DNA of 64,000 bases from Planctomycetota bacterium (lineage in GTDB: Bacteria > Planctomycetota > Planctomycetia > Gemmatales > Gemmataceae), in contig JAKBCS010000002.1 of assembly GCA_021807595.1 (NCBI GenBank), positions 2,178-66,177 on the forward strand. Reading direction: 5' to 3'. Under the pieces are notes generated by a model. The model saw only the letters and a list, made by a program, of their open reading frames with translations, searched no databases and had not been told where the DNA came from. A program made the translations under genes and the position numbers. Positions 32,755 to 49,047 of the stretch are shown here, in pieces. Positions within the stretch are counted from its first letter, which is position 1, and each line of letters begins with the position of its first letter.

Positions 32755-33834
32755 TTGGCCGGAAACGGAGATTCCGCCATTCGCATCGACGAATTCGATT
32801 ACGATTTGCCGCCGGGGCTGATCGCGCAGACACCTTGCTCCCAACGCGACCAAGCGAGGTTGATGGTACTCCGCCGCTCCGGTGAAGCGCTGGAACATCG
32901 GCACTTCCACGAGTTGCCGACGTTGCTTGATCCCGGCGATCTGCTGGTGTTGAACGATACCCGCGTTCTTCCCGCTCGCGTGATCGGTCGCCGCGCGCGC
33001 ACCGAGGGCAAGTGGGAAGGGCTGATTCTTGGCGCAGCACCAGAAGGGAACTGGGAATTACTCTGTCAGACGCGCGGTCGTTTGATCGTCGGCGAGACTT
33101 TACTCGTCGATCCCACGAACGGCGATGCCTCCACGCCGCCCTTGCGTTTGTGCCTGATCGGCAAGACGCCCGGCGGCCACTGGTTGGCACAGCCGAGCGA
33201 ACCCGGAACCATGGCCGAATTGCTCGGACGGTATGGCCGCGTGCCGCTCCCTCCGTACATCCGCAAGGGCCGTGCCAACGAGGGCGACCGCGAACGCTAT
33301 CAGACGGTCTACGCCCAACGCGAAGGGGCGGTGGCTGCTCCGACGGCGGGACTGCACTTCACCCCGGCCGTTTTTGAAGCGTTGAAGCAGCGCGATATCG
33401 AATGTTCCTTCGTCACGTTGCACGTTGGGCCGGGGACGTTTCAGTCGGTGCAAGTCGAAGAAGTCGCCGAGCATCGGATGCAGAGCGAATGGTGCGAGTT
33501 GTCGGCCACGACCGTCGATGCCATCGAGGCATGTAAGAAGCGAGGCCGTCGCGTCGTCGCCGTAGGTACGACTTCCGTGCGGGTCTTGGAGACCGTGGGT
33601 CAAAAGGGAATGCCCCTGACGGCGTGGTCGGGAAACACGGACTTAACCGTTTGTCCTCCGTTCGAGTTTCGCGTCGTCGATGCGCTGGTGACGAATTTTC
33701 ACCTGCCGCGCTCCAGTTTATTGCTCCTCGTCGCCGCCTTCGCCGGACTGGAACCGATGCGGCAAGCGTATCGAGTCGCCATCGAACAACTGTATCGCTT
33801 CTACAGCTACGGCGATGCCATGCTGATTCTGTAA
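32755..33834 (+). CDS. queA: S-adenosylmethionine:tRNA ribosyltransferase-isomerase
   Basis: IDEFDYDLPPGLIAQTP, GHW and LPPYI motifs, with the C-terminus YRFYSYGDAMLI. There is no in-frame ATG. The TTG at 32755 is preceded by GAGGA 9 nt upstream. The ORF-track start at 32680 is also a TTG and lies inside a repeat. Confidence 0.85.
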   Translation: MAGNGDSAIRIDEFDYDLPPGLIAQTPCSQRDQARLMVLRRSGEALEHRHFHELPTLLDPGDLLVLNDTRVLPARVIGRRARTEGKWEGLILGAAPEGNWELLCQTRGRLIVGETLLVDPTNGDASTPPLRLCLIGKTPGGHWLAQPSEPGTMAELLGRYGRVPLPPYIRKGRANEGDRERYQTVYAQREGAVAAPTAGLHFTPAVFEALKQRDIECSFVTLHVGPGTFQSVQVEEVAEHRMQSEWCELSATTVDAIEACKKRGRRVVAVGTTSVRVLETVGQKGMPLTAWSGNTDLTVCPPFEFRVVDALVTNFHLPRSSLLLLVAAFAGLEPMRQAYRVAIEQLYRFYSYGDAMLIL

Positions 33835-33893
33835 CGGACAATCCTGACGTGGACAATCGCATTCTCCATCTCGACGTTCGCAACGGCTCCCTG

Positions 33894-34676
33894 ATGCCCG
33901 CTCAGTCGGAAGTGTGGATTCGCGTGGTCCCAGAATGGCAATCGCCCACGACCGAACTGCGCGGCCGGCTCATGGGACCGCGCTGTCCTTATGCGAGTAC
34001 CGTGGAGGTGGCGTATCCACTGCGTCCGATGCCGCAACGAGAAAGCTCCGACCGTTTGACGGCGCGCGTCGTCATCCCAGAAGCCAGCTTATGGGATACG
34101 GAGAGCCCGTTTCTCTATCGAGGACCGATCGAACTGTGGCAAGACGGTAGATGCTGCGAACGAATCGTACTCTGCCACGGATTGCGATCGGTTCTCTTGG
34201 GCGAGCGCGGTCTCTCGCTCAACGGCAAGCCGATGAGTCTCCGGGGGCAAACGGTCGCCTCCTGTACCGAAGCGGAGGCTCTGAAACTCCGCGAGAATGG
34301 GTGCAACTTACTGATCGTCCCGGTCGAAGAGAGTACCCTTTCGCTCTGGGAACGTGCCGACCGTCTGGGCTTCCACGTTTTGGGGCAATTGAAGGATGGG
34401 AGCGAGAAAACACTTAAATACCTGAATCGGCTCCATTCGCAGCCGAGCTGTTTGGGTTGGCTCGTGGAGAAAGGGATACATCCACCTCTCGACCTCCTGC
34501 CGCCGAGATGCCTAGTCGGTCTGGTGTGCGATGAAACCGCCCCGTCGCTTCCCCTGTGGACCGGCCATTTTTTATTTGGCCCGGCGGAGTTGGCGAATCT
34601 CGGCAAGGCGTTGCTCGTGAAGGGGGAAACGTCTCTACCACTTGTAAGCGGCTCAATTCTGGGACACGCCTCGTGA
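33894..34676 (+). CDS. short glycoside-hydrolase-family-2-like protein (truncated or degenerate)
   Basis: 260-aa ORF. ASLWDTESPFLYRG..., GLRSVLLGERGLSLNGKPMSLRG and LRENGCNLLIV...ADRLGFHVLGQL resemble the GH2 junction into the TIM barrel. The protein is much shorter than GH2 enzymes and I see no SHYP-type segment. Confidence 0.4.
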   Translation: MPAQSEVWIRVVPEWQSPTTELRGRLMGPRCPYASTVEVAYPLRPMPQRESSDRLTARVVIPEASLWDTESPFLYRGPIELWQDGRCCERIVLCHGLRSVLLGERGLSLNGKPMSLRGQTVASCTEAEALKLRENGCNLLIVPVEESTLSLWERADRLGFHVLGQLKDGSEKTLKYLNRLHSQPSCLGWLVEKGIHPPLDLLPPRCLVGLVCDETAPSLPLWTGHFLFGPAELANLGKALLVKGETSLPLVSGSILGHAS

Positions 34677-34886
34677 GCCGTTCCCTCGGCCACACCCACG
34701 GTAGAAAAGTTGCTACAATCCCTAAAGGTTGCACATTCCTCAATCTGTAGATGCTCCCCTTTCCGATCGCAAAGTTTTCCTTGCGGGAAAAGTTCCCCCA
34801 ATCTGTTAGAATGGTAGATTGAGACACGTCGATTTTACGGATGGTAGCGAACGCCGTCGGGTCTCGAGAGGCAGGAGGAGGCATCC

Positions 34887-37800
34887 ATGTTATCCTCGCT
34901 CGGCAGGTATCTCATTTTGCTCCTTCTGGGCGCGACGATCGCCTTGTCGTCGCATGCACAAGAGAAACCCGCGAAGTCCGCGCCCTCTACAAAGAGCGGC
35001 GGCAAGGACAAGAAGACTCCACCCGATGTCGAATCGAAAAAGGCCGCCGATCTGAAAAAGCTGGACCTGGCTTCGCTTCCCGCCGAGGCCGTTCTCATTT
35101 TGTGCGAGCGAGTCAATGAAGCGCTCGAACTGTTTCCCAAACTGGTCGTTTTGAGACCCGAAAAATATCAGGAGATGCGCGACGAGATCGAACGCCTCAA
35201 GGAACAGCTTCAGTCCGAGAAACTGACAACCACGCCGACGCGGTGCGTTCTGCGCGGCAAGGTCGAAGTCAATGCCGTTCGGTTCGAGGCGGAGTTCACC
35301 GGGACGACGGATCGCGCCGCCACTTGGGTGGCGCTGGCTTGCCAGCAGGCCGGCGCGTCGGTAGCCGAGACCGATGGAAACAAAGCACACATTCGCCGCA
35401 ACGAATCGAGCGGATTCGCAGTGCGAATCGAGAAAGCGGGCGACTATCGCGTCAAGCTCGATTTGATTCTGCCGTTGGCATCGCGGGACGGCAGTACACG
35501 CGGTTTCGAGTTGTCGCTGCCGCGCCCCGTCATAACCACTCTCGAACTCGAATTGCCCGCCAACGTGAAGGATGTGCGCGTCGGCGGACGCCTCCTCAAA
35601 GATGCGCGCCTCTCGGGTCTGACGCTGAAAAATAATCGCCAGCTCCAAGGTAATCCCAGTCTCGAACCCGTCGAAAAACTCGACGTATCGTGGAAAGATA
35701 ATCGGCGGCCGGTGGGCGAGCCGATGCGCACGGCCTTGGGAACGATTCAGGTGCGTTTGGACGAGACTGGACTGACGACCGAAGCCGATCTGCTGCTCGC
35801 GGTCGAAGGCGCACCGACCAACGAATGGCGTTTGCTGGTTCCGCACAAGGCCGAAGTCAAAGTCGATCCACCGGACGACGTTCGCATTCAAGAGATTCGC
35901 ATGGTCCCCGATACCCCCTTCTCTTCGCAGTGCATCCTTCGCTTGAAAGAAGCGAGCGGCGATCCGTTCCACGTTCGCATTCGCGTGCCGTCGCAGTTGC
36001 ATCCCAAATCGCCCATGCCGGTGGGGCCGTTCTGCGTCCTCGACGCCGTACGGCAAAGGGGAACTGTTGTGGTTCGCAATCGAGTGCGCAACGTGCAATT
36101 GGATTATCGCGGACACGGCGACATGCAGCTGCGCCGCCAACAAACGGCCGAGATCGGGGAGACGCCGGGAACGGTCGCGACCCTGGAATACATCGATATA
36201 CCCAGAGTGAGCAAGCCGAGTCAGGCGACGGGTCCGCACTCGTTGTCGTGGCTGGATCTGGTCGCGGAGACATCGCTCCCGCAAGTGCGGACGCGCGTTT
36301 CCCATACGCTTAGGCTTCGTCCCAGCAACAACGAGGGGGCGATGAGCTGGGTTATTGAAACGACGATCGTGCCGGAGTCGAAATGGAGCGACGGCGAACC
36401 GTTGAGAGTCTTCGTGCCCGCCGACTGGCAATCCAGCGATGAAAACGTCTCCGTCAACGGAAAGGCCGAGGCCCGTTATGTCTTGCTACCGATCCCACGC
36501 AATGCGTCTTCTTCGCCCTTGCGTTTGGACGGCAGCTATTCGACCGTCCACGAGGCCGACGGGCGCGTCGCTTTCAAACTGCCGCGACCTCAAGGAGCCG
36601 TCGAATCGTGCGATGTCTCGTTCGTTGCGCCGGCCGACATCGAATTAGTCGTCAACAACCGCGAAGCACTCAATATGGAGCCGGGAAAGTCGAATCGCCC
36701 CAACGAACAGACCTGGCGCTGCCTCAACGGCGCGCCGGACGGAGTCGGCATCGACGTGAACTGGAGGCCGTATCGCCCCGAACTGCGCGTCGCGTCGGTC
36801 ATCGATCTGACGTTAAACGGCAACCACGGCGATCTGCGCCACGAATTGCGTCTCCAGTTACCACCGATCCCGCCGGCTTCGTTGAACCTCCGCGTGCCGG
36901 ACAGCATCGATGACGTGCGGGTGGAAAGCGGAGAATGGAGAGCGGAGAAAAGAAACGGTAGATTCGTCCTCGTCCCCACTGCAACTCTCCACGCTTCACC
37001 CACGAAGCCTTTGCTGCTACACTATACGGCTCCGTTGACGGGAAAAACCTCCGAGACGGGCGCGAGGAACACGCCGCTCCTCGTGCCGTTGGTATCCGTG
37101 GAACAGGCGACGGCGAACGATGTCAAAGTTCGCATCTGGAGCGAACCGGGCGTTCTGCCACGATTGGCGGCAAGCCGAGCCTGGGAAGAACTCGGCATCG
37201 AAGAAGTCGAGGGACGCCGCGATCTGCCGGTGTTGGTGTTGCGCGCCGCGCGGCGCGACGTGCCATTGCGGTTGATTGTGGCCGAGTACTCGGCGAGCTA
37301 CACTGTTCTCGTCGAGCGTTCGCAGTTGCGTGTAAGTCTGGGCGAGAACGGCGTGCAATCTTGGCGCGCGCGCTTCCAAATCCGCCAACTCGCTCAGCGC
37401 GATCTCGACATCTCGTTTCCGGTTCCCGTGGCCACTCTTCACGCTCGCTTTTTCCTCAACGGCAAACAAGTGACCCCGGCTTTGCTAGACGACAAGGGCG
37501 AGCCTACCGACGGGGGCGAAGTGGCGCGGCTGCGCTTGTCGCCCGAACTGATTCGGCAGACCTCTCTGCTGGAAGTGTCCTTTCAGTCGCTGCCAACACG
37601 AAGCGAACGCAGCCCGTTGCATACTCTCTTGCAGCCGCCGCTGCTGCGGGGAGCGCCTACCGTTCCAGCGCGCTGGCTGGTGAGCGTGCCCGGCAATCGC
37701 GTGTTGCTTTCACCCGAATGCGAAGCGGGAGCGGAGCGCTCCTGGACTCGCCACGGTTGGCTTTTGGCCGCTCGCTTGCAACAGAGCAGCGCCGACCTCG

Positions 37801-38327
37801 AACGCGAATTCGACAACGCGCTGCCGGAAAAACTGCGCCGAGAGCTGGAATCGCGGCCAGCTTCCTCCGGCGACGACCAAGCTCCTGCCTTAATGTTCTG
37901 GCAAGATCAGACCGCGCCGATTGTCTTAACGCAAGCGCCTCAGCAGGCTTGGTTATTGGCTTGTTCGTTAGGGCTACTCCTGCTCGGTCTGGGTGTCTAC
38001 GCGTCTGCCCGACCGCGGGAGAATGGACACTGGGCCAGTTGGTTTTGGCCGCTGTTGGCGGTACTGGCGTTGGCCGTCTCCGTGGCCGCCTTGTTCTGGC
38101 CGGCAGCATTTTGGGCCATCGTCTATGGGTGCGAACCGGGCGCGCTCGTTTTGCTCGGCGTGGTGGCGATGCAATGGATGATGCACCAGCGCTATCGACG
38201 ACAGATCGTTTTTTTGCCCAGCTTTAGCCGAGGTCGAGCCGGCTCCTCCCTCGTGCGCAAACCGCCCGTGCCGCGCGTTCCCAGCGGCGAACCATCCACC
38301 GTCGATGCTCCGCCCCCCGTGGGATAG
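34887..38327 (+). CDS. giant secreted/membrane protein, unit 1 of a paralogous trio (unknown function)
   Basis: 1146-aa ORF preceded by an AGGAGGAGG RBS. It has a signal peptide (LILLLLGATIALSSHAQE), a short coiled coil and about 950 aa that appear beta-rich. Three C-terminal TM helices are followed by a basic stretch (RYRRQ). Confidence 0.8.
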   Translation: MLSSLGRYLILLLLGATIALSSHAQEKPAKSAPSTKSGGKDKKTPPDVESKKAADLKKLDLASLPAEAVLILCERVNEALELFPKLVVLRPEKYQEMRDEIERLKEQLQSEKLTTTPTRCVLRGKVEVNAVRFEAEFTGTTDRAATWVALACQQAGASVAETDGNKAHIRRNESSGFAVRIEKAGDYRVKLDLILPLASRDGSTRGFELSLPRPVITTLELELPANVKDVRVGGRLLKDARLSGLTLKNNRQLQGNPSLEPVEKLDVSWKDNRRPVGEPMRTALGTIQVRLDETGLTTEADLLLAVEGAPTNEWRLLVPHKAEVKVDPPDDVRIQEIRMVPDTPFSSQCILRLKEASGDPFHVRIRVPSQLHPKSPMPVGPFCVLDAVRQRGTVVVRNRVRNVQLDYRGHGDMQLRRQQTAEIGETPGTVATLEYIDIPRVSKPSQATGPHSLSWLDLVAETSLPQVRTRVSHTLRLRPSNNEGAMSWVIETTIVPESKWSDGEPLRVFVPADWQSSDENVSVNGKAEARYVLLPIPRNASSSPLRLDGSYSTVHEADGRVAFKLPRPQGAVESCDVSFVAPADIELVVNNREALNMEPGKSNRPNEQTWRCLNGAPDGVGIDVNWRPYRPELRVASVIDLTLNGNHGDLRHELRLQLPPIPPASLNLRVPDSIDDVRVESGEWRAEKRNGRFVLVPTATLHASPTKPLLLHYTAPLTGKTSETGARNTPLLVPLVSVEQATANDVKVRIWSEPGVLPRLAASRAWEELGIEEVEGRRDLPVLVLRAARRDVPLRLIVAEYSASYTVLVERSQLRVSLGENGVQSWRARFQIRQLAQRDLDISFPVPVATLHARFFLNGKQVTPALLDDKGEPTDGGEVARLRLSPELIRQTSLLEVSFQSLPTRSERSPLHTLLQPPLLRGAPTVPARWLVSVPGNRVLLSPECEAGAERSWTRHGWLLAARLQQSSADLEREFDNALPEKLRRELESRPASSGDDQAPALMFWQDQTAPIVLTQAPQQAWLLACSLGLLLLGLGVYASARPRENGHWASWFWPLLAVLALAVSVAALFWPAAFWAIVYGCEPGALVLLGVVAMQWMMHQRYRRQIVFLPSFSRGRAGSSLVRKPPVPRVPSGEPSTVDAPPPVG

Positions 38328-38375
38328 CGGCCAACCTTCGGGCGACGAGGCGATAACGAGACAGGGAGACGTTCG

Positions 38376-41300
38376 ATGGCGAGAGCGCAGATCGCATGGG
38401 GGCAAGCGAAAACCCACCGCCCGGTGAACCTGTTCCGCTATGTCCCTCTTTGCACACTACCGTTTCTCGCCGGTGTTCTCGTCGCGTTATCCCCGTTTCA
38501 GATCTTGAACTTGTCGCCGAATGTCTCGCAGTCGGCGGAGCCAAGGGAATCGATACCTAGCTTTCGACGCCTGTTGCTTTCAGCGGAACAATTGCCGGAG
38601 GAAATGAATCGCGTTCGGGATGGTGTGCTAGTGCGTCTGCCGCGCGCCGAGTTTGAAGCCTTGGTGGACAGAGCGACCCAGGCCACCGCGAAAAAAGTCC
38701 CACCGCTCCTGTTGGAAGCCCACTATCACGCCAAGCTGAAAGACGACGCACTGTTCGGCGAGGGCCAGTGGAAGCTGACGCACAAAGGACCGGGGCCGGG
38801 ACTATTGAGCCTCGATCCGTTCAATCTCGCCGTGCGACAGGCGCGATTCGAAAACGACGACGCCATCCTCGCCGCCTTCGACGGGAAGACCCCGGCCCTA
38901 TTGGTCGAGACGCCCGGCGAGCGGACCGTGTCGCTCGATTGGTCGGCGCGCGGCGAACCGGGACCGAATGGATTGCAGTTCCATCTGGAGATGCCCTCAA
39001 GCCCCGTCGCGCTTATGGAATTGGACGTGCCCGTTGGCTGCGGCGTAACGATGCTGAAAGACGGGGCATTGCTTTCCGGCCCCCACGAGGCGGAAAAGGC
39101 AGAGTTGCGTCGGTGGAAAATCGTTTGTGGTGGGACTCCCAGCATCGATGTCCTCATCCTCCCTATCGACCGCGCCGATGCGGTCTCTCCTCCCTTAGTA
39201 CGTCAACGAACCGCGCAAAAACTCAATCCGGAAGGACTCGAAGCGACATTCGAGCTAACGCTGGACGGCCCGACGCGCGGTGTGCGCGAGTTGGTGTGCG
39301 AATGCGATCCAGAACTAAGACTGGGCGAAGTCGTTGGCCCCAATGTGGGGGATTGCTCGTTCCAACGCGGCGATGAGAAAAAGCCCTCGCGGTTGACGAT
39401 TCGATTGCGCGAGCCGACGCGCGCGGGAACGTGGCAAATTCGATGCTTGGCTCCGCTCAATCGTACCTCGTCGCCGGGGGGAGCGCGGCAGATCGCCTGG
39501 CACAGTCCCGGACTACGCCTGCTCAACGGCGCGTCGCGCGGCGAAACATTGACGCTGTGGCTGCATCCCGAGTTGCGCGTCGAAGATTGGGATTCCGGAC
39601 ATTATCGACTCATTTCTTCTGAAATCGAACGCGCCTCGGGCGGACAGATCCTGACCCTGCAAGGCGGCGGATTGGGTCCGCTCCGCCGCCCTTCTTGCCG
39701 CGCGCGCGTCAATGGCGTCGATTATCGCGTCCAACAACTGACGTGGTTGCACGGCGACGCCTCTGGCATGGGAATGACGGTCCAACTTGCATGGGACGTC
39801 GACCAGGGGCAACTCTTTCAGCTGCCGATACGATTGCCCCCTCAATGGAAAGTCGATAAGGTCGAATTGAACCCCGCCACCCTTTTGCGCGATTGGCGCG
39901 TGCGCGGTCCCGCCGATAAAGCGACACTCGTCGTCGATCTTGCCGAGCCTATCGGCGTGCGAAAATCGACCGAGGGGGAGCGCGAGACGGAACCGGCGCG
40001 CGCAAGCGCCGCGCCGCGCTCGCGCCCGCCGATGCTCACCCTCCACCTGAAACACGAGGTCCCGAATGGGTCGGTGGGTAAATGGTTGCCGTTTCCCGAT
40101 GTCGCGGCTCAAGGCGCGCGCTTCCGCGAGGGGGCGCTGGCACTCGATTGCGACGAGCGACTGTTTCATCTTGAGGTGGAGGCGCGAGCGGAGCGTTCCG
40201 AAGTAGATGGCGAAGGACCGTGGGGGCAGCGTTTACCGGAGTATTATTATCGTTTTAAGGGCCAACTGCCTCCGGGGCGTCTGCGCGTATTGCCGCGCGC
40301 TCCTCGCATTCGCGCCAGGTGCGAAACGGAGGTATTGCTCGCCTCCGCTCGCGCCGATGTCGAGCTGCGCTTGTTGTTCGAATTGGAGTCCGGCACCTCG
40401 AACACCGTCGAATTGTCGCTGTCGAGCGGCGACGGCGAGCCGTGGTCGTGGCGCAACGAGGCCGCTCCGCGAGGCGAGGAGTCGTCGCACAATCGCGTGG
40501 TCCGCATGGATCGACTATACGGAGAGGAAATATCTTCCGCGCTTCACCTGATCGGCCAGGTGTCGCCGCCGTCGATCGCCGCCGTCGCCGCCGCATGGCC
40601 GAGCGACGAACGCTGGCGTTTGACGCTGGCTCGACCGCTGCGATTGCGCGAGCCGCTCCGCTTGCACGCGCGCCGCTCCCTGCAGCCGCTCGACGGCCGC
40701 TGGCACGTCCCGCTGCCGATCGTTCGCGGCACCGAGCGCATGGAGGGAGAGGTGAGGCTGCATTTGGAGCGAAGCGATCTCGTGCATCCGCACTCCCAAG
40801 GTCTGCGCGAGGCGGCGGCCCTACCCGGATCGGGCACTCCGCCGTGGCGCACCTATCGCTACGGGCAAAGCGCGGTCGGACTGGCACTAACCGGCGCGGC
40901 TCAGGTCTCAAGTCGGGCGTCGACCGCCGTCATCGACCGCGCAGTCCTGCTGACCCATGCCGGAGGGGATGGGGGCTTACACCATCGCTTTTCCTTTCAG
41001 GTCGCCAACTGGAACGAACCGATCCTGCCGTTGCGTCTGCCTCCCGGTTCGCGCCCAGCAGCCGTTCGGATCGATGGACGTTGGTTGCCGCGACTGCTGC
41101 CGAAGCTGGAGGAAGACGCCGTCGCTCCTGCCGACGATCCGATCGAATTAAACCTACCCGTGCCGATTCGAGAAGGAAAGGCCGTCAAAAACATCCATCG
41201 GATTGAGGTCGTCTACACACGCGCTATGAAGCCGTGGACCGGGTGGCAACAACTCGAAGCGCCCGCTCCGAGTCTGCCGGTTGGTCCGCTTTCGTTCCGT

Positions 41301-44300
41301 CGGATCTGGCGATTGGCACCCCAGCTGACGCCCTTGCACTCCGAGCGCTATCAACGCGTTCCCGCCACCGGCGGCACTGCGGAATGGCCCTTGCTTCCGC
41401 GACGCTTCGCCGACTTGTTCCATTTGCCGGGAGCGTGGCGAACCTTCGATCCAATGGTGGAGGACCGCGCCGCGTCGACGCGCGAAATCCTCGATCGAGC
41501 CGGGCGAGAGTTGCGCGTTCGTCGCGCCGAGAAGACCATCTCGATGCGCGAGATGGTGGACGAATTGGCTTTCGACCACTTAAAGGATCGCTCGATACTT
41601 CTTCTGGATGCAGTGGCGTTGAGGGAAGCGGGAATTGGACCGGAGACTACCGTTCGCATCGATCGACTCTCTGCCGACGATGTGTCGCCTCCCTGGACGG
41701 TCCTCGGTCTCGTCGCCGTCCCAGTCCGATCCGCGATATTATTGACGACCTCCGGCGCGTCGAGGGAGATGCTTCGTTACCCATTGCTGGAAGAGATGGA
41801 GAAAACGCTGGCCGATGCGGCGGCGCGCGGCCAAGATCCGTCCGGACGATTCTGTTCCGCTCTGAATTGGCTCGATCCCGACGGCGCGGCGCTCGACATC
41901 GAATGGTCGCCGCCGGATTCCGAGACCCAACGCGCAGATTGGAGCGAGTGGGAACCGATTGCCGGCGTCTTCGAAGACGGTCCCTTGGTAGTACGGCGCG
42001 AGGGGGTGACGGCGGCTGCTTTGGTTTTAGTCTTCGCGGTAGGAGTCTTCTTCTGGTTGCGGGGCCTTTGGCCGGCTCGCCCTCGCTTGCTACCCCTTTT
42101 GTCCCTGTTGGCCCTATTGGGCCTGTGCGTGGTTTGGCTGCCGGGAGCGCTACGCGGCGCGGTTTGGTGGGCTTTGTTGGCCGCGTGCGCTGGGGCGGTG
42201 GCGCATTATCTGCGCTGCGTCGTTGTCTTGCGCATTCGGAGGCGAGCGCAGTCCACACTTCTCCGTCCGCGAAGAGCCGGGTCCGCCGCCGCGGTGGGCT
42301 TGCTCCTGTCGGCAGGTCTCATTGGTTGGTCGGGCCGCGCCGACGCACCTACACCCTTCACGGTCTACCTGGTTCCTACCGGCGACGAAAAATCGGACAA
42401 GCAAATGGTGTTGGCTCCCGCCGATCTCCTCGACCGCCTCAAGGATCTGACTCGAATGTCCGGGTCGGCAGCAGTCGGTCTGCGGGCGGTTTTGCTGGAC
42501 GCCTCCTACGAAGGGCAAGTGGTTGAGGGGCAGGCCGAGTTCGCCGCCGTCTTCTCGGCCTATAGCACGACCGATGCGGCGACGCGGCTCACGCTGCCTT
42601 GGTCCGATGTGCAGTTGATCGGCGACGTTTTACTCGACGGGGCGCGCGCTTGGCCGTCGACGCTGCCCGCGCCGCAGGGCGGTTGTTCTCTCAAGCTGCA
42701 AGGGCGCGGTCGACATAAGATCGAGTTGCGATTCCGCGCTCCCATCCTCGGCACGCGGGAAGATCGCAACGTGATGTTCGCCGTGCCTCCGCTGCCGCAC
42801 AGCCGTCTGTCGTGGCGTTTGCCGCCGGGCGCGCTCGAACCGCAAATGTTGGTGAAATACGGCGCTCAATGGAAAACGCGCGCCGCCGACGGCGAGCGAA
42901 TGGAGGCGGACCTCGGCGCGGTGCCTCGTCCCGTCCATCTGCATTGGTATCAGCCGTCGGGCACCCCTCTCGTCACTTATCGGGCCGCCTATTTGTGGGA
43001 ATTGGGCGTCGAATCGAATCGCCTGACCGCTTGGTTGCGGTATCGGGTGCGGCAAGGCTCGGTGAATACCTTGGAAGTCGATCTGCCCGAAGATTTAGAG
43101 GTAAGCTCGGCGACGGCTCAGCGGACGGCGTCCGTCGAGCCGGCTCCCTGGTCGGCGCGCGTCGCGCTGCGCGATTGGCGCGTGGGCCGAGCCGACGGTC
43201 AACACCGTCTTTATCTGGAGTTTCCCTATCCGGTTCAGGGCGATTTTCAAGTGACGCTGAAGCTGTTGCCGCGCGAACCGTTACCGGCGCGGGCCTCGCT
43301 GCCGATTCCCTCGCCGCGCGGCGTTCGCGCCTCCGGTGCCTCCGATCTGGCCTATCGCACCGATGCAGGATTGAGCGCCCAGCGCGACACCTCGAATTAT
43401 CTCACCCGCATCGCCTCCGAGCAATTCGCTGCCGATTGGCCCGACGCGACGCGCCTGGAAGAGAATTTCTCCGGCACCGCCTACCGCATCACCCCCGACC
43501 ATGTGCCGCAATTGGTTTTGCGATTGGTGCAGACGCCACCGGCCATCCAGTCCGAGGTCGATGTCACCGTTCAGGCCGGTGGACATTCCGCCCAATTTCG
43601 CGCCCTCGCCGATCTGAAATCGGCCAATAAGGATTTGGCGTATCTCGAATGGGAACTTCCTACCGCCGAGTGTACCATCGTGTCGGCGACGGGCGACGAT
43701 GTGCGTGCATGGAAGCAACACGGCGCACGCTTGCTCGTGTGGTTGAACCGAACGACGACTGCGACGCGCCTGCAACTGTCCGGTTGGCTGCCGTTCAAAC
43801 CGTCCGGCGCGACCTCGCATCTCGAGTGGAGCGGGCCTCGTTTGCACTCGGCCTCGCGCCAGCACACGCGCCTTCACGTTACGGCCGTCGGCGACCAGAT
43901 CCTCTCCGAGGTTGTCGCGCGCAATCTTCAGCCCATTGCCGTGCCCGGCGGCGTTCGCCGGACGGGAGAGCGTGAGGCGAGCTTTGAGTCGTCGGATTTG
44001 CTGTACCATCTGCGCTGCCGAGTACGGCCCGCCTCGAACGCCGTCGCCCAGGTGTTGACCTTGGCCGAGGCGAACGAACGGGAGTTCCGATTTACGACCG
44101 CGGTACATTATCGGGTCACACGCGGCGAGTTGCAGCGCATTCACCTGCGCCTGCGCAACTGGGATCGAGAAAAGGTTGAACTGAGGGCGGAAGGCATCGC
44201 CGAGACTCCGAGTCCGCGTCGAATGGCGGGGGAACGATCGTGGCTGTTGACTTTACCGGCGGGTATCACCGGCGTCTTCCGCGCAACGCTGAGCGGAGTC

Positions 44301-45758
44301 ATGCCGCTCGAGGATGCCGAGTTGGGCATACACATGCCAGAGGTCGTCGTTGGAGGCGTCGAGAGCGTTCAGTCATTTGTCGCCGTCACCGGGGATTTAA
44401 GCGCCCAAGCGAGTGGCACATTGCAAGCGTTGTCCCCATCCAACAAGGAGCTGGCCTCTTCATGGCCGGGCGAGACGCAACGGCTGGAGCGTGCGGCGGG
44501 ACAAGCCTGGCGGGTAACGGGTTCCGAATGGCATGTGCGCTTGCTGCCGCGCGCGCGGACGGAGGACGCGACCCCCTCGCTTGTGTTCCTGACGGAGCAG
44601 GGGGCAGTCGCTCTCGATGGCCGACGTTGGCTCCACGAGGGGTACTGGTGGCTGCGGCACGAAGCGTATGCGGATCTGAACCTCGACTTTCCCGCGCCGG
44701 CCCGAGTTCTGGCTGCCTCCGTGGACGGCGTGGAGGTCACAACGCTGCAATCCGCTCCGGCGCGCGCGTGGCTGCCGATGCCGGGTCGGTCTGGAGTGCG
44801 CTGCCTTCGTCTACGATGGATTTACGACCCCTCGGAACCGTTGGATCGACCGAATCTAATCCCTCCGCGAGTGGCCGACGCCGTCCAAGGGCCAACTCTT
44901 TGGTCGGTGCGAGTCCCCGCGGGTTGGGATGCCGGCAGCGCCGCGCCGGCGGCTCGTCTGGGCAGCGGCGCGCCGTGCAAGGCTGCTCTCTCGTTGTACC
45001 GCGCCGACGCACAGCTTCGCATTGCCCAAGCCCTCGCCAAGCAAGCGCGCGCGCCCGACTCGGAGACCGTTGCATCCGTTCGACGCCGATTCGAGTTGTA
45101 CTGCCTTCAGGCTCAAAATGCTTTCGCGCAGGGAGGCAGGAACGAGAACCTGAAGGGACCGAGCGGCCAAAGCCCGATCGAGTGGATGGCCGATTTACAA
45201 GCCGCCGGCCGAGCCCTTGGGAAAGATGAACGAGTCAAAAAGGGGGAAGCGGAGAAGGGGACAAAGAAGAACGAAGATACGAAAAGTAGCGGAGAAAGAG
45301 AGAAAGAAACGAACGACCGTCGCTTTTCTCTTCTTATTCCCGATTCGTCTTCTCCGCCACTCTCCGAATCCATACCAGAAAGCGGCGGCATCGTGGTCTC
45401 TTGGTACGGTCGTCCCGGTTCGGAGCCGCCGCGTTTGCGACTGACCTCGCAAGTCAATCGGTACAAACGTCAAGCCCTGGCCGCGTCCGGCGAATGGATC
45501 GGCGGATTGGTTGTCGTTTGGATTCTCTCGCTCATGCCGTTCGTGAGAGCCAGACTGCCTCTTTTTTGGCCGGAGCAGATCGCATTGCTCGGCCTCCTCG
45601 GTTTGCATCTGGCGGGAACGACTTCGATTGTTCTGGGCTTATTCGTACTCGCGATCGGCGGTCGTTTGTTTTTGATGGCGCGGGGAGTGCATGGTTGGTT
45701 GCGAGGTCCTCGACACCAACCGAGTACGATGAACGCCGTCGGTAGCGGCGGAGGATAA
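38376..45758 (+). CDS. giant membrane protein made of two further units (units 2 and 3) of the same architecture (unknown function)
   Basis: 2460-aa ORF starting 48 nt after the previous stop. It has an N-terminal hydrophobic segment and an internal 3-TM bundle plus a signal-peptide-like segment at about aa 1210-1322 (nt 42004..42345). A second 3-TM bundle sits at the C-terminus. Confidence 0.8.
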   Translation: MARAQIAWGQAKTHRPVNLFRYVPLCTLPFLAGVLVALSPFQILNLSPNVSQSAEPRESIPSFRRLLLSAEQLPEEMNRVRDGVLVRLPRAEFEALVDRATQATAKKVPPLLLEAHYHAKLKDDALFGEGQWKLTHKGPGPGLLSLDPFNLAVRQARFENDDAILAAFDGKTPALLVETPGERTVSLDWSARGEPGPNGLQFHLEMPSSPVALMELDVPVGCGVTMLKDGALLSGPHEAEKAELRRWKIVCGGTPSIDVLILPIDRADAVSPPLVRQRTAQKLNPEGLEATFELTLDGPTRGVRELVCECDPELRLGEVVGPNVGDCSFQRGDEKKPSRLTIRLREPTRAGTWQIRCLAPLNRTSSPGGARQIAWHSPGLRLLNGASRGETLTLWLHPELRVEDWDSGHYRLISSEIERASGGQILTLQGGGLGPLRRPSCRARVNGVDYRVQQLTWLHGDASGMGMTVQLAWDVDQGQLFQLPIRLPPQWKVDKVELNPATLLRDWRVRGPADKATLVVDLAEPIGVRKSTEGERETEPARASAAPRSRPPMLTLHLKHEVPNGSVGKWLPFPDVAAQGARFREGALALDCDERLFHLEVEARAERSEVDGEGPWGQRLPEYYYRFKGQLPPGRLRVLPRAPRIRARCETEVLLASARADVELRLLFELESGTSNTVELSLSSGDGEPWSWRNEAAPRGEESSHNRVVRMDRLYGEEISSALHLIGQVSPPSIAAVAAAWPSDERWRLTLARPLRLREPLRLHARRSLQPLDGRWHVPLPIVRGTERMEGEVRLHLERSDLVHPHSQGLREAAALPGSGTPPWRTYRYGQSAVGLALTGAAQVSSRASTAVIDRAVLLTHAGGDGGLHHRFSFQVANWNEPILPLRLPPGSRPAAVRIDGRWLPRLLPKLEEDAVAPADDPIELNLPVPIREGKAVKNIHRIEVVYTRAMKPWTGWQQLEAPAPSLPVGPLSFRRIWRLAPQLTPLHSERYQRVPATGGTAEWPLLPRRFADLFHLPGAWRTFDPMVEDRAASTREILDRAGRELRVRRAEKTISMREMVDELAFDHLKDRSILLLDAVALREAGIGPETTVRIDRLSADDVSPPWTVLGLVAVPVRSAILLTTSGASREMLRYPLLEEMEKTLADAAARGQDPSGRFCSALNWLDPDGAALDIEWSPPDSETQRADWSEWEPIAGVFEDGPLVVRREGVTAAALVLVFAVGVFFWLRGLWPARPRLLPLLSLLALLGLCVVWLPGALRGAVWWALLAACAGAVAHYLRCVVVLRIRRRAQSTLLRPRRAGSAAAVGLLLSAGLIGWSGRADAPTPFTVYLVPTGDEKSDKQMVLAPADLLDRLKDLTRMSGSAAVGLRAVLLDASYEGQVVEGQAEFAAVFSAYSTTDAATRLTLPWSDVQLIGDVLLDGARAWPSTLPAPQGGCSLKLQGRGRHKIELRFRAPILGTREDRNVMFAVPPLPHSRLSWRLPPGALEPQMLVKYGAQWKTRAADGERMEADLGAVPRPVHLHWYQPSGTPLVTYRAAYLWELGVESNRLTAWLRYRVRQGSVNTLEVDLPEDLEVSSATAQRTASVEPAPWSARVALRDWRVGRADGQHRLYLEFPYPVQGDFQVTLKLLPREPLPARASLPIPSPRGVRASGASDLAYRTDAGLSAQRDTSNYLTRIASEQFAADWPDATRLEENFSGTAYRITPDHVPQLVLRLVQTPPAIQSEVDVTVQAGGHSAQFRALADLKSANKDLAYLEWELPTAECTIVSATGDDVRAWKQHGARLLVWLNRTTTATRLQLSGWLPFKPSGATSHLEWSGPRLHSASRQHTRLHVTAVGDQILSEVVARNLQPIAVPGGVRRTGEREASFESSDLLYHLRCRVRPASNAVAQVLTLAEANEREFRFTTAVHYRVTRGELQRIHLRLRNWDREKVELRAEGIAETPSPRRMAGERSWLLTLPAGITGVFRATLSGVMPLEDAELGIHMPEVVVGGVESVQSFVAVTGDLSAQASGTLQALSPSNKELASSWPGETQRLERAAGQAWRVTGSEWHVRLLPRARTEDATPSLVFLTEQGAVALDGRRWLHEGYWWLRHEAYADLNLDFPAPARVLAASVDGVEVTTLQSAPARAWLPMPGRSGVRCLRLRWIYDPSEPLDRPNLIPPRVADAVQGPTLWSVRVPAGWDAGSAAPAARLGSGAPCKAALSLYRADAQLRIAQALAKQARAPDSETVASVRRRFELYCLQAQNAFAQGGRNENLKGPSGQSPIEWMADLQAAGRALGKDERVKKGEAEKGTKKNEDTKSSGEREKETNDRRFSLLIPDSSSPPLSESIPESGGIVVSWYGRPGSEPPRLRLTSQVNRYKRQALAASGEWIGGLVVVWILSLMPFVRARLPLFWPEQIALLGLLGLHLAGTTSIVLGLFVLAIGGRLFLMARGVHGWLRGPRHQPSTMNAVGSGGG

Positions 45759-45775
45759 AGAGGCGATCCAAGATG

Positions 45776-45822
45776 CCCCTTCCCCTGAGTACAGAGAGGG
45801 AGTTTCTGAGACAGTTTCTCAG
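45776..45822. repeat. REP-like element, family B (third copy)
   Basis: CCCCTTCCCCTGAGTACAGAGAGGGAGTTTCTGAGACAGTTTCTCAG, located between convergent genes. Confidence 0.7.
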
Positions 45823-45848
45823 CGCCACGCTTTAGGCTCGACACGATC

Positions 45849-46538
45849 TTAGCGAGGTTGCTCGATCTGCGCCAGCACCGCGCGAATGGCCGACAGTGGA
45901 TCGGGAAAAGTTTGCGTGGTCCCGTAGGTGCGGTTGGTGTTCGGATTGCTCGGTACGGGGATCGAGCAACTATACTTCCATGTGCCATCGTCTTCCATGT
46001 CGAGTCTCTGCCAGGCAACGTGTTGCCGTTTGAGGAATTGTTGGGCTTCCTCGAAAGTTCGCACGGAGGCCGCCGTTCCGGTGAAGGCGGGGGGCGGCGG
46101 AGTCCCACTCGATGTCGTTACCATTCTCGCGGTCGTCCCCGGCGATACAGGCTCCGGCGTGCCTACCGAAACATTGGGGGCTACGCCGCGCGCGGCACCT
46201 CCGGTCAAACGCACATCGCGCACGGGTTCCGGCGCTCCCATCTCGCCACTGGCCAGCGAGGCCGTGCCCGCGCCAGAAATGGAGGAAGGCAACGGCGGAA
46301 CGGGACCTATCGACGCCGTCTGGGGCGAAGTTTGTCCCGGCGTCACGCCTGGCCCGGCCACCGGCGTCGGATTCGGCGGGGCGTGAGAACCCATAAACGG
46401 ATCGTTCGAGGCGTATTTCTTGCCGTACAATCCTTCGCAACCGGCCAAGGTCATCAGGGCGAGTGCCACGATCCAAAGACCCGTGCGCCCGTCGCTCTGC
46501 CGGACTCCCTTCCGCCTGGACTGGCCCACTGGGTGCAT
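45849..46538 (-). CDS. lipoprotein (hypothetical)
   Basis: The ATG at 46538 gives ...GLWIVALALMTLAGC, which contains a lipobox. A Pro/Gly/Thr-rich linker follows, then a roughly 70-aa C-terminal domain. Confidence 0.6.
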   Translation of the reverse strand: MHPVGQSRRKGVRQSDGRTGLWIVALALMTLAGCEGLYGKKYASNDPFMGSHAPPNPTPVAGPGVTPGQTSPQTASIGPVPPLPSSISGAGTASLASGEMGAPEPVRDVRLTGGAARGVAPNVSVGTPEPVSPGTTARMVTTSSGTPPPPAFTGTAASVRTFEEAQQFLKRQHVAWQRLDMEDDGTWKYSCSIPVPSNPNTNRTYGTTQTFPDPLSAIRAVLAQIEQPR

Positions 46539-46662
46539 ATGCCTTCCCGCCTTTTGCCGCGCTTGCCGCTTTTGTCCATAGTCCGTAGTCGTAGGGTGAG
46601 TCGAATACGGATGACCCACCGAAAACAGACGACTGACATACCGAAGCGAAAGGGTTCAGACA

Positions 46663-47727
46663 ATGGCAGCTTTTCGAATCGCCGTCATCGGCGGAGACGG
46701 CATCGGCCCCGAAGTCATCGATCGAGCCATCCAAGTCGCCGATGCCGCGCGCCGCCACGACAATGCCGTTCTCGACTGGAATCCGCTGCCGTGGAGTTCC
46801 ATTCACTATCAGAAGACGGGGCAGATGATGCCGCCCGATGGCTGGGACATTCTGCGCCGCCACGACGCCATTCTGCTGGGTGCCATCGGCCATCCCGACG
46901 TGCCCGACCACATCACCTTGCACGGACTGCTCCTGCCCATGCGCCGCAAGTTCGATCAGTACGTCAACCTTCGTCCCGCGTATCTGTACGATGGCGTGCA
47001 GTCGCCTTTGCGCGACAAGGCTCCCGGCTCGATCGACATGATGGTCTACCGCGAAAATACCGAAGGCGAGTACGCCCCTATCGGCGGTCGGCTCTATCAG
47101 GGAACGCCGCACGAAATCGCCATTCAGACCAATACCTTTACGCGCCGCGGTTGCGAGCGAATCATGAGGGCCGCTTTCGAGGGTGCTCGCAAACGCCGAA
47201 AGAAAGTTACTTCCATCACGAAATCGAACGCGCAGACTTTCGGAATGGTATTGTGGGATGAGGTTTTCAAGGACGTGTGCCGCGACTATCCTGATGTTGA
47301 GTCGGGATCGTTGCTGGTCGATGCGGCGGCGATGGATTTTGTGCGCAAGCCGGAAGTGTTCGACGTGGTGGTGGCCAGTAATCTCTTCGGCGACATCTTG
47401 ACCGACTTGAGCGCCATCGTCACCGGCAGCATGGGCTTGGCGGCCAGCGCCAACATCAATCCGGAACGGACGTTTCCCAGCATGTTCGAGCCGGTTCACG
47501 GCTCCGCTCCCGACATTGCCGGCAAGGGGATCTCCAATCCGTTGGCGGCCATTCTGTCGGCGGGACTCCTGCTCGACCATCTCGGCCTGGACAAGAGTGC
47601 GAACGCGCTGCGCCAAGCCGTGGCGAAGGTGTTGAAAGACGGCGCGGTGCGAACTCCCGACCTCGGCGGCAAGTCCAGCACAACCGAAGTGGCCGACGCC
47701 GTTCTTGCCGCGCTGCCCCGCGCGTAG
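46663..47727 (+). CDS. isopropylmalate/isocitrate dehydrogenase-family enzyme, closest to tartrate dehydrogenase/decarboxylase (D-malate dehydrogenase)
   Basis: IGGDGIGPEV, GHPDVPDHITLHGLLLPMRRKFDQYVNLRP, TKSNAQ and PSMFEPVHGSAPDIAGKGISNP. These match my recollection of TtuC-type sequences better than LeuB. Confidence 0.8.
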   Translation: MAAFRIAVIGGDGIGPEVIDRAIQVADAARRHDNAVLDWNPLPWSSIHYQKTGQMMPPDGWDILRRHDAILLGAIGHPDVPDHITLHGLLLPMRRKFDQYVNLRPAYLYDGVQSPLRDKAPGSIDMMVYRENTEGEYAPIGGRLYQGTPHEIAIQTNTFTRRGCERIMRAAFEGARKRRKKVTSITKSNAQTFGMVLWDEVFKDVCRDYPDVESGSLLVDAAAMDFVRKPEVFDVVVASNLFGDILTDLSAIVTGSMGLAASANINPERTFPSMFEPVHGSAPDIAGKGISNPLAAILSAGLLLDHLGLDKSANALRQAVAKVLKDGAVRTPDLGGKSSTTEVADAVLAALPRA

Positions 47728-48252: not shown

Positions 48253-49047
48253 GTGGCTCGGATACCTCCCCCTCTGAACGAGGCGGCGCTGCCCTTCGTG
48301 ATGCGCTGGAGCGCGGCAGACAATCCCCTACCGATGCGCACAGTGCGAGTGCCGAGAAAAGCTCGGCGTCCGTCGTTCGGTCTGGAGGCACCGCCTTGGC
48401 TTCCGACTGGACCCACCGACCGACCGTTCGACTTTTCCACGCGCATACGCGCGCTCTGCGCCGACATCGTGCGCCACTGCCCCGAATTGCGGCACGTCGA
48501 TGTTTCGCGTCTCCTTTTCGGCATGACGCAAGCGCGCAGCGGACGCACGCACGGACTGCAAGCGCGCGTCACGCCGATGCGTTTCCGTCGCGGCCAACTG
48601 ACGCGGCAGCGGCGCGGCGGACTCTATCACGTCCAGCGCTACTTCGTCGAAGGGCGCGAGATGCTCTACCTCGTGACCTTTTGTCTGCCGCGCTTTCTCG
48701 ACCGCGATTTCGACGACAAGTTTGTCACGCTGTTTCACGAGTTGTATCACATCGGCCCGCAATTCGACGGCGACCTGCGCCGCCACGAGGGCCGCTGCGC
48801 CTTCCACACCCACAGCAAACGCCAGTACGACGACCACATGGGCCAGATGGCCCGCGCCTATCTTTCCAACGGCGCGGAGCGCTCGCTTCATGCGTTTCTA
48901 CGGCTCAATTTCGCGCAATTGCAGCATCGGCACGGCAGCGTCGTCGGCGCAATGGTGCCGCGCCCGCGCCTTCTGGCCATCCCATCTTCCACCATCGACC
49001 CCAGACGAATCGGCTGCTCGCGCGCCGAGAACAATAGCGAAATTTAA
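48253..49047 (+). CDS. HExxH metallopeptidase-like protein (SprT/DUF45-like)
   Basis: GTG start 7 nt after AAGGAG. It has a single HELYH motif inside LFHELYHIGPQFDGDLRRHEGRCAFHTH. Confidence 0.55.
   Translation: MARIPPPLNEAALPFVMRWSAADNPLPMRTVRVPRKARRPSFGLEAPPWLPTGPTDRPFDFSTRIRALCADIVRHCPELRHVDVSRLLFGMTQARSGRTHGLQARVTPMRFRRGQLTRQRRGGLYHVQRYFVEGREMLYLVTFCLPRFLDRDFDDKFVTLFHELYHIGPQFDGDLRRHEGRCAFHTHSKRQYDDHMGQMARAYLSNGAERSLHAFLRLNFAQLQHRHGSVVGAMVPRPRLLAIPSSTIDPRRIGCSRAENNSEI

Follow-up and report, generated by a model that had tools for sequence, protein, structure and literature searches.

Two adjacent genes of a planctomycete of the family Gemmataceae encode three large, membrane-anchored units that appear to be ancient paralogues of one another and that belong to an undescribed protein family. 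The sequence analyzed, called the window below, is a stretch of 64,000 nucleotides from a Planctomycetota bacterium (GenBank assembly GCA_021807595.1, contig JAKBCS010000002.1, positions 2,178 to 66,177 of the forward strand), and coordinates are those of the window. The first gene, g1, is an open reading frame (ORF) of 1146 amino acids (aa) at 34887-38327 (+); the second, g2, is an ORF of 2460 aa at 38376-45758 (+), on the same strand and separated from g1 by 48 nt. These coordinates and sizes agree exactly with those in the initial annotation of the window, in which the pair was first noticed. We refer to the whole of g1 as U1, to residues 1-1295 of g2 as U2 and to its residues 1296-2460 as U3, so that g2 is a fused U2-U3; all features of the pair are on the + strand. 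The layout shared by the three units is an N-terminal hydrophobic segment, a short helix, ~850 aa of beta domains, juxtamembrane helices, three transmembrane (TM) helices and a basic cytoplasmic segment.

The computed evidence consists of the paralogy of the units, their conserved gene order, their predicted topology, an all-beta predicted fold, a fold match to Ost1 and the absence of catalytic motifs. Our favored explanation, which we hold tentatively, is that g1 and g2 may form a non-catalytic, pseudo-trimeric platform in the inner membrane that supports assembly of a glycan or glycoprotein in the periplasm. Membership of the pair in an ‘envelope system’, for which it had been singled out as a candidate, is a prediction.

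Paralogy, family and gene order

The claim that the two genes resolve into three paralogous units with one layout, made by eye, is borne out at the level of profiles only. Compared with one another by BLASTP and phmmer, the units give no significant match (best E about 0.006-0.09), and thus the pairwise similarity expected of paralogues has to be sought with profiles. Family alignments of 59 and 71 sequences were compared using hhalign, and the similarity is then significant for every pair: U1 matches U3 over residues 96-1082 and 55-1133 (P = 5.5e-18) and U2 over residues 160-918 and 156-963 (P = 3.6e-15), both collinearly, and there is a long collinear match between U2 and U3 (P = 1e-14 to 3e-14). 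Control profiles with reversed column order, which keeps the composition, give at best P = 0.014 and raw scores of no more than 35, compared with 143-168 for the real unit comparisons. Hidden Markov models (HMMs) of the units were also run against 135 ORFs of the window. The U3 model finds g1 with E = 1.8e-7, the U1 model finds g2 with 7.9e-4 and the U2 model finds g1 with 2.4e-3; every other ORF listed has E = 0.06 or worse, and no additional paralogue of U1-U3 is found among the 135.

The motifs described earlier as common to the units, in the helix, the opening of the body and the ‘FPxP’ and ‘W.V.VP.G’ blocks, occupy matching columns of the alignment. The aligned pairs are the helix EMRDEIERLKEQ and DLLDRLKDL; the opening GKVEVNAVRFEAEF and GQVVEGQAEFAAVF (pattern GKVE..A.F.A.F); LDISFPVPV...LNGKQVTP and LNLDFPAPA...VDGVEVTT (pattern L...FP.P...V.G..VT); and RWLVSVPGN and LWSVRVPAGW (pattern W.V.VP.G). 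Identity between the units is only about 16-17%, and the triplication is thus, by this measure, ancient. The profiles of the paralogous units also give weak off-diagonal matches with a shift of ~185 residues (for the internal repeats of U3, P = 4e-6), which indicates that a series of repeated beta domains makes up each body.

Word-indexed homologues number 64 for g1 and 94 for g2, the latter nearly all about 2400 aa in length. All are unnamed or labeled ‘hypothetical’, none has a precomputed Pfam domain, and those with a named source all come from Gemmataceae metagenome-assembled genomes (MAGs). An exhaustive profile search with g1 returns 2701 clusters (50% identity) at E<=1e-3, the best 150 of which are all full-length proteins of ~1100 aa. 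Genome and metagenome scans add up to 81 loci, nearly all of them labeled Gemmataceae, Gemmatales or Planctomycetota and none from a named isolate; the few with other taxon labels are probably binning errors.

The initial annotation had recognized no named domain, and database searches agree. Pfam and NCBIfam give no match for g1 or g2, and Pfam gives none for the 34 members of an alignment of the g1 family (A1; E<=1) or for five distant relatives (E<=0.1). There is likewise no match of g1, g2 or the ORF upstream of them to the anti-phage defense models of PADLOC-DB, and none of the A1 profile to PDB sequences. We found no published description of the family in the literature on Gemmataceae giant genes, planctomycete ribophorin, or crateriform structures and electron cryotomography. 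The family is therefore undescribed, with no Pfam, NCBIfam or PADLOC model and no solved relative by sequence, and at 776 clusters (50% identity, E<=1e-30) it merits a database entry of its own.

Wherever a locus has enough sequence to show it, the order is U1, U2, U3, and this holds down to 22-24% identity; when synteny is checked in this way, the pair is maintained across Gemmatales-type genomes. An unannotated gene pair that is conserved across a whole major order of soil and freshwater planctomycetes takes up some 11 kb of core chromosome. Of 39 loci, 29 encode U2 and U3 in a single ORF, and no locus has U1 fused to U2. In the remaining 10 the U2-U3 ORF is broken at odd positions. Loci in which g1 or g2 is split into several ORFs, with the breaks off the unit boundaries, are L009, L018, L023, L025, L027, L028, L031, L035, L043 and L047. 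Nine of the 10 broken loci carry ‘MFD’ isolate names (assemblies of uncultured MAGs), and we read the breaks as assembly frameshift errors, with pseudogenization as the alternative. Since gene order and co-occurrence are fixed, U2 and U3 are fused and U1 never is, the arrangement of one plus two units suggests an obligate hetero-oligomer of fixed stoichiometry.

Membrane topology and the U1 tail

Membrane anchoring and a large extracytoplasmic body had both been claimed for the units, and both are supported by the hydropathy, the positive-inside pattern and the AlphaFold model, which is all-beta. In the hydropathy scan, g1 has hydrophobic segments at aa 2-20 and three within aa 1019-1101, and those of g2 are at aa 19-47 and 1300-1322, with three more within 1204-1285 and a cluster at 2367-2438. 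Lysine and arginine are distributed in g1 as two in the loop between TM helices a and b, none between b and c, and seven in the first 25 residues of the tail. Basic patches come after the last TM helix of each unit, in keeping with a cytoplasmic location, so that the three TM helices and the basic patch are placed as first described. This pattern fits a topology in which the N-terminus is inside, followed by a TM segment, the periplasmic body, three TM helices and a cytoplasmic tail.

A signal-peptide-like start had been assigned to every unit; the hydrophobic segments are there in all three, and what probably does not hold is a cleavable signal in U3. In U1, an N-terminal hydrophobic segment is present in 52 of the 59 family members, and aa 1-24 (34887-34958) look like a cleavable Sec signal peptide ending ...ALSSHA|QE, judging from the hydropathy and an AxA-like site with Gln at +1. 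The corresponding segment of U2 (aa 19-47, 38430-38516) could be a TM anchor or a signal segment. The hydrophobic start of U3 (aa 1300-1322, 42273-42341, ...GWSGRADA|P) is preceded by a basic loop, RIRRR...RPRR, and terminates with a conserved GRA[AD]A-P, the Pro of which is at +1. Proline in this position blocks cleavage by signal peptidase I. Because of the conserved Pro after the AxA site, the segment is more likely an uncleaved TM anchor, and U2-U3 should then stay one polypeptide with eight TM helices.

The bundle at the end of U1 (aa 1019-1101, 37941-38189) is assigned from hydropathy, conservation and the structural model, and contains conserved FWP and YGCEPG motifs; it is followed by the cytoplasmic tail (aa 1102-1146, 38190-38324). 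In U2, the periplasmic beta body (about aa 105-985, 38688-41330), placed by its hhalign match to U1 residues 160-918, leads to three TM helices (aa 1204-1285, 41985-42230) assigned by hydropathy and K/R distribution, and then to the basic RIRRR loop. In U3, an N-terminal helix and beta body (about aa 1350-2190, 42423-44945), placed by the match to U1 and the internal repeats, precede a TM bundle with a conserved FWPEQ motif (aa 2367-2438, 45474-45689), the third helix of which is weakly hydrophobic and was placed mainly by alignment to U1. The basic cytoplasmic tail of U3 (45690-45755) has a weakly conserved PST.

The residues conserved in the families are for the most part W, P, G and L; at the TM boundaries, conservation extends to charged or polar residues (CEPG, WLP.ALRD, FWPEQ). 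No HExxH, CxEQ thioester or catalytic GxSxG motif was found in either protein; the earlier statement that no catalytic motif can be recognized therefore holds for the motifs scanned and for the conserved residues.

One N-terminal and three C-terminal TM helices, with a large loop between TM1 and TM2, could also belong to a transporter or mechanotransmission device, either of the FtsX/MacB type (type VII ATP-binding cassette, ABC) or a channel through the TM bundle that exports an envelope component, and the conserved charged and polar residues at the TM boundaries could be read in the same way. However, Pfam searches at thresholds up to E<=1 detect neither FtsX or MacB_PCD nor any other transporter family, the Foldseek matches described below include no transporter fold, and three TM helices within ~80 residues, joined by minimal loops, are unlike an FtsX domain. 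Nor does an ABC ATPase adjoin the pair. In one locus (L001) an ABC_tran gene lies ~5 kb upstream, on the opposite strand and with five genes between, and ABC_tran is not called in four other loci (L002, L004, L005 and L050) nor found among the window ORFs scanned. We regard a transport function as quite unlikely.

Conservation in g1 is highest in the U1 tail, exceeding that of every folded part; the tail has the consensus QRYRRQIVFLPSFSRGR.GSSL.RK...GEPSTVDAPPP. The tail segment of the window, YRRQIVFLPSFSRGR...EPSTVDAPPP (within aa 1102-1146, 38190-38324, +), carries a near-invariant, bipartite motif, YRRQ[IV]VFLPSF.R..GSSL.R ... EPSTVDAP. Both AlphaFold models predict the tail to be disordered, with a predicted local distance difference test score (pLDDT) <50. 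The motif persists to about 27% overall identity and is lost only in a clade at 24%. It could not be assigned to any known motif class, and the tail of g2 has only the weaker PST. Such a pattern is typical of a short linear motif, and the tail may bind a conserved partner.

A near-invariant, disordered linear motif with Ser and Thr residues (GSSL, EPSTVD) on the cytoplasmic side would also suit a transmembrane sensor or signaling platform, whose ectodomains would bind an envelope or environmental ligand and signal through the TM bundles to the cytoplasmic loops and the U1 tail; the tail would then recruit an effector in the cytoplasm, for example a Ser/Thr kinase, a phosphatase or an FHA protein, with the invariant S-T as its target. 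The FWP and FWPEQ motifs conserved at the cytoplasmic face, and a Ser/Thr kinase or FHA-GAF-PP2C gene near the pair in some loci, point in the same direction. There is, however, no recognizable output domain, the neighboring kinase and phosphatase genes lack conservation and some of them are encoded on the other strand, and the most distant clade lacks the tail motif but still keeps the whole architecture. A sensor seems improbable to us.

Predicted fold and candidate roles

The AlphaFold2 model of full-length g1, based on the 34 sequences of A1 (mean pLDDT 73.7, predicted TM-score or pTM 0.37), consists of N-terminal helices, an all-beta region at ~aa 117-945, two short helices, a hairpin and three long helices. 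The N-terminal helices (aa 76-112, 35112-35222; H76-85 and H91-112) include the ‘L..L..R’ stretch and align to the helix of U3. The all-beta region is the periplasmic body (aa 117-945, 35235-37721), in which ~5-6 beta-sandwich domains are seen using DSSP on the model together with Foldseek. A separate model of the membrane-proximal half (g1 residues 615-1146, 36729-38324; pLDDT 79.8, pTM 0.60) contains two beta-sandwich domains, juxtamembrane helices, the hairpin and the TM helices.

When the PDB is searched with Foldseek, the best match of both models is ribophorin I/Ost1, with E = 2e-8 for the full-length model, E = 7e-12 for the half and probability 1.0. The top matches of the half-model are 8b6l_O (7e-12), 6s7o_E (1.4e-10) and 6ezn_A (1.9e-9), with ~500-600 aligned columns, and its matches to ribophorin I/Ost1 span E = 7e-12 to 1.5e-8. 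After these come PIGT (3e-6 to 1e-4), followed by a cohesin dyad, mu-homology domains and integrin legs. By E-value, Ost1 stands five to six orders of magnitude ahead of the next fold class. The N-terminal domains of M1 aminopeptidases also match (probability 1.0, ~190-270 columns). All matches of the U1 body are to beta-sandwich arrays. In the predicted model, as in Ost1, two tandem extracytoplasmic beta-sandwich domains are followed by a TM helix, with TM-scores of 0.22-0.34.

A platform in glycan assembly is favored because of the Ost1 and PIGT fold matches, the lack of a catalytic signature and the carbohydrate-related neighbors found in several clades, together with the collinear paralogous units, their constant co-occurrence, the predicted topology and the near-invariant U1 tail. 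What we infer is a pseudo-trimer, a part in glycan handling, a partnership with a GT-C glycosyltransferase and a role for the tail, as follows. One copy each of the g1 and g2 products would assemble into a pseudo-trimer of the three ancient paralogues. Each unit would cross the membrane once at its N-terminus (in U1, by a cleavable signal peptide), place ~850-900 residues of tandem beta-sandwich domains in the periplasm and lead back, by three TM helices, into a basic segment on the cytoplasmic side. The periplasmic arms would serve as a scaffold or substrate-holding platform on the outer face of the cytoplasmic membrane, where an envelope glycan or glycoprotein would be assembled, plausibly beside a polyprenol-dependent GT-C glycosyltransferase. 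Model roles would be those of ribophorin I/Ost1 in oligosaccharyltransferase (OST) and of PIGT in glycosylphosphatidylinositol (GPI) transamidase. The invariant disordered U1 tail would recruit a conserved cytoplasmic partner.

Carbohydrate-related genes are found near the pair in the window and elsewhere. A PMT_2-family GT-C glycosyltransferase gene (26076-27614, +; Pfam PF13231), a candidate partner, lies 7.3 kb upstream of the pair. Its orthologue in L031 (8215-9687), 55.6% identical, abuts U1, and nothing else in that locus is syntenic with the window. A second PMT_2 gene is found 1.5-3.4 kb upstream throughout the most distant clade (L029 4883-6643), and three GT-C queries give no further matches in 1.35 Mb of collected loci. 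In that clade a gene for a pectate-lyase-like right-handed beta-helix protein stands between the GT-C gene and U1 (L029 6646-8001 (-), with equivalents in L033-L045); the protein begins directly with the pectate-lyase-like domain, without an evident signal peptide. A FadB-like enoyl-CoA hydratase/dehydrogenase gene follows U3 in the same clade. In L047, a glycosyltransferase family 4 (GT4) gene and an NAD-dependent epimerase gene are directly upstream.

Immediately upstream of g1 in the window is a truncated ORF of 260 aa related to glycoside hydrolase family 2 (GH2; 33894-34676, +), which has a weak match to Pfam PF00703. It matches LacZ only at residues 286-354, where the beta-sandwich ends and the TIM barrel begins, and no signal peptide is seen. 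The half or so of the loci that are closest to the window have the ORF directly upstream of g1, at 43-87% identity, and the proposed synteny of the pair with it thus holds there and fails in the rest. As it is conserved to this extent, the ORF seems to be maintained, though probably without a catalytic barrel. Neighbor clustering of ~50 loci gives no universal partner gene, only clade-restricted neighbors, and tblastn with GT-C and GH2-like queries over 88 sequences gives the same picture.

Several of these results weigh against the platform. The TM-scores of 0.22-0.34 come with a root-mean-square deviation of about 19-26 Å, so that the match lies only in the kind of domains and their succession (sandwich, sandwich, membrane helix, helices), not in their arrangement. 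Arrays of beta-sandwich domains are interaction modules of a generic kind, and matches are obtained with integrin legs, mu-homology domains and cohesins too. No GT-C gene is present in ~30 loci with 10 kb of upstream sequence, in the distant clade an opposite-strand gene separates it from U1, and in the window it is 7 kb away, among housekeeping genes. The GH2-like and beta-helix neighbors lack signal peptides and would thus act on the other side of the membrane. Finally, sequence homology to ribophorin I is not found: an hhalign comparison with a 30-sequence ribophorin I profile gives a probability of 1.3% for A1 and <=1.4% for U1, U2 and U3.

The ribophorin I profile was obtained with yeast Ost1 as the query (identical to PDB 6c26_1), for which the family was collected and 30 diverse fungal members were aligned. 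With yeast Ost1 alone or with this profile, the hhalign probability is <=1.4%, and sequence homology to ribophorin I was rejected. Pfam PF04597 (Ribophorin_I) likewise gives no match for g1, g2 or the 34 A1 members at E<=1, or for the five distant relatives at E<=0.1. As far as these comparisons can detect, U1-U3 are not members of the ribophorin I family; by analogy of fold, they may work like ribophorin I despite the lack of a sequence relationship.

A more specific proposal is that three ribophorin-I-like paralogues are docked on a PMT_2-type GT-C enzyme as a periplasmic complex for glycosylation of a protein or polymer, regulated via the U1 tail. No STT3-like gene is found in the neighborhood of the pair, only the different GT-C type (PMT_2) near some loci. 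The link of GT-C to the gene pair is a lead rather than a finding, and we think this complex unlikely. If it were real, it would be a bacterial counterpart of the accessory subunits of glycosylation in the eukaryotic endoplasmic reticulum, and the units would either be related to Ost1 by deep homology or have converged on it strikingly.

The same beta-sandwich arrays could instead be structural, with arms that reach the peptidoglycan or outer membrane as an envelope tether or spacer and set the spacing or organize the periplasm of Gemmataceae, without any substrate. A long non-catalytic array in each unit (~5-6 domains in the U1 model), strict stoichiometry, restriction of the family to Gemmatales-type genomes, a housekeeping chromosomal context rather than an island, and the integrin-leg-like matches in the fold search are all in its favor. 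However, no peptidoglycan-binding or outer-membrane-targeting domain is detected with Pfam, and a tether would leave the invariant cytoplasmic tail and the recurrent carbohydrate-related neighbors unexplained. Furthermore, both ends of the beta array are membrane-anchored in U2 and U3, which favors an arch near the membrane over an extended rod. We consider a tether or spacer doubtful, though worth keeping in mind.

Weak Foldseek matches to complement C5 and A2ML1 (probability 0.15-0.2), and those to cohesin and integrin beta-sandwiches, raise the question of an alpha-2-macroglobulin-like protease trap or a cell-surface adhesin of Ig-like repeats. The CxEQ thioester motif is absent from g1 and g2, there are no A2M, MG or adhesin Pfam domains, and multiple inner-membrane TM helices at both ends are incompatible with a surface-exposed adhesin. 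Both proposals are already largely refuted, and we give them next to no credence.

The genes around the pair are core-chromosomal, among them dnaB, hemD, a gene for an ilvB-like thiamine pyrophosphate (TPP) enzyme, queA and leuB. Convergent with g2 is a lipoprotein-like ORF (45849-46619, -) with an LAGC lipobox, a Pro/Thr/Gly-rich linker and no Pfam match; such an ORF recurs downstream of the pair in ~10 closely related loci, and the C-terminal segment looks similar in two copies compared by eye. Further downstream, a 675-aa DUF11/CARDB-repeat protein (49207-51234, +) and a 1223-aa ORF without Pfam match (51454-55125, +) are not paralogues of U1-U3 according to the HMM search. An ORF at 48253-49047 (+) matches PhageMetallopep (PF18894) with E = 4e-6 and lies among chromosomal housekeeping genes. 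No riboswitch or RNA is found by Rfam across 33500-47000, and a scan for sigma-70 promoters and terminators gave counts at or below the shuffled expectation and is uninformative.

The envelope of Gemmataceae is unusual: the periplasm is enlarged, the membrane forms invaginations, and cells divide by budding in the absence of FtsZ. To our knowledge, few of the protein components of this envelope have been described. A stoichiometric inner-membrane complex of three paralogues would be a concrete candidate for one of them. If the Ost1/PIGT-like fold reflects function, the platform would be the first bacterial case of multi-subunit scaffolding around a GT-C-type enzyme, and would bear on the origin of the accessory subunits in eukaryotic OST and GPI transamidase.

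Comparison with known systems

FtsX/MacB permeases share the topology predicted for g1 and g2: TM1, a large periplasmic domain and three C-terminal TM helices. Some of these permeases are known in duplicated or fused form. Neither FtsX (PF02687) nor MacB_PCD (PF12704) is matched by g1 or g2, however, there is no adjoining ABC ATPase, and the periplasmic domain of g1 and g2 is far larger and all-beta, with compact TM helices. Bacterial alpha-2-macroglobulin and other thioester proteins differ in that g1 and g2 have no CxEQ, no A2M-family Pfam match and a Foldseek probability of only 0.15-0.2.

The N-terminal beta domain of M1 aminopeptidases (LTA4H, ERAP2, IRAP, aminopeptidase A) is similar as a single-domain fold, and the model suggests that it probably defines the type of sandwich repeated in each unit. 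Unlike those enzymes, g1 and g2 have no peptidase domain or HExxH; the domain is a repeated structural module. PIGT, the scaffold of GPI transamidase (7wld_T, 8imx_T), represents the second-best fold class and is likewise non-catalytic, with an extracytoplasmic beta-sandwich ectodomain and a C-terminal TM anchor. Its match is much weaker than that of Ost1 and there is no sequence similarity; moreover, PIGT has a single TM helix and is present in a single copy, and U1-U3 have no transamidase-like partner.

The closest likeness is to ribophorin I/Ost1 (PF04597; 6ezn_A, 6s7o_E, 8b6l_O), which is also non-catalytic and has a tandem pair of extracytoplasmic beta-sandwiches followed by a membrane helix and further helices, aligned by Foldseek collinearly over nearly the full length. 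In contrast to it, U1-U3 show no detectable similarity by sequence or profile and TM-scores of 0.22-0.34, have 5-6 beta domains per unit rather than two, three TM helices rather than one and an extra N-terminal anchor, and are triplicated and bacterial, without an STT3/PglB gene nearby. The pair thus presents a known type of fold in a new architecture: a triplicated unit encoded by one plus two genes, with three-helix TM bundles and an invariant tail.

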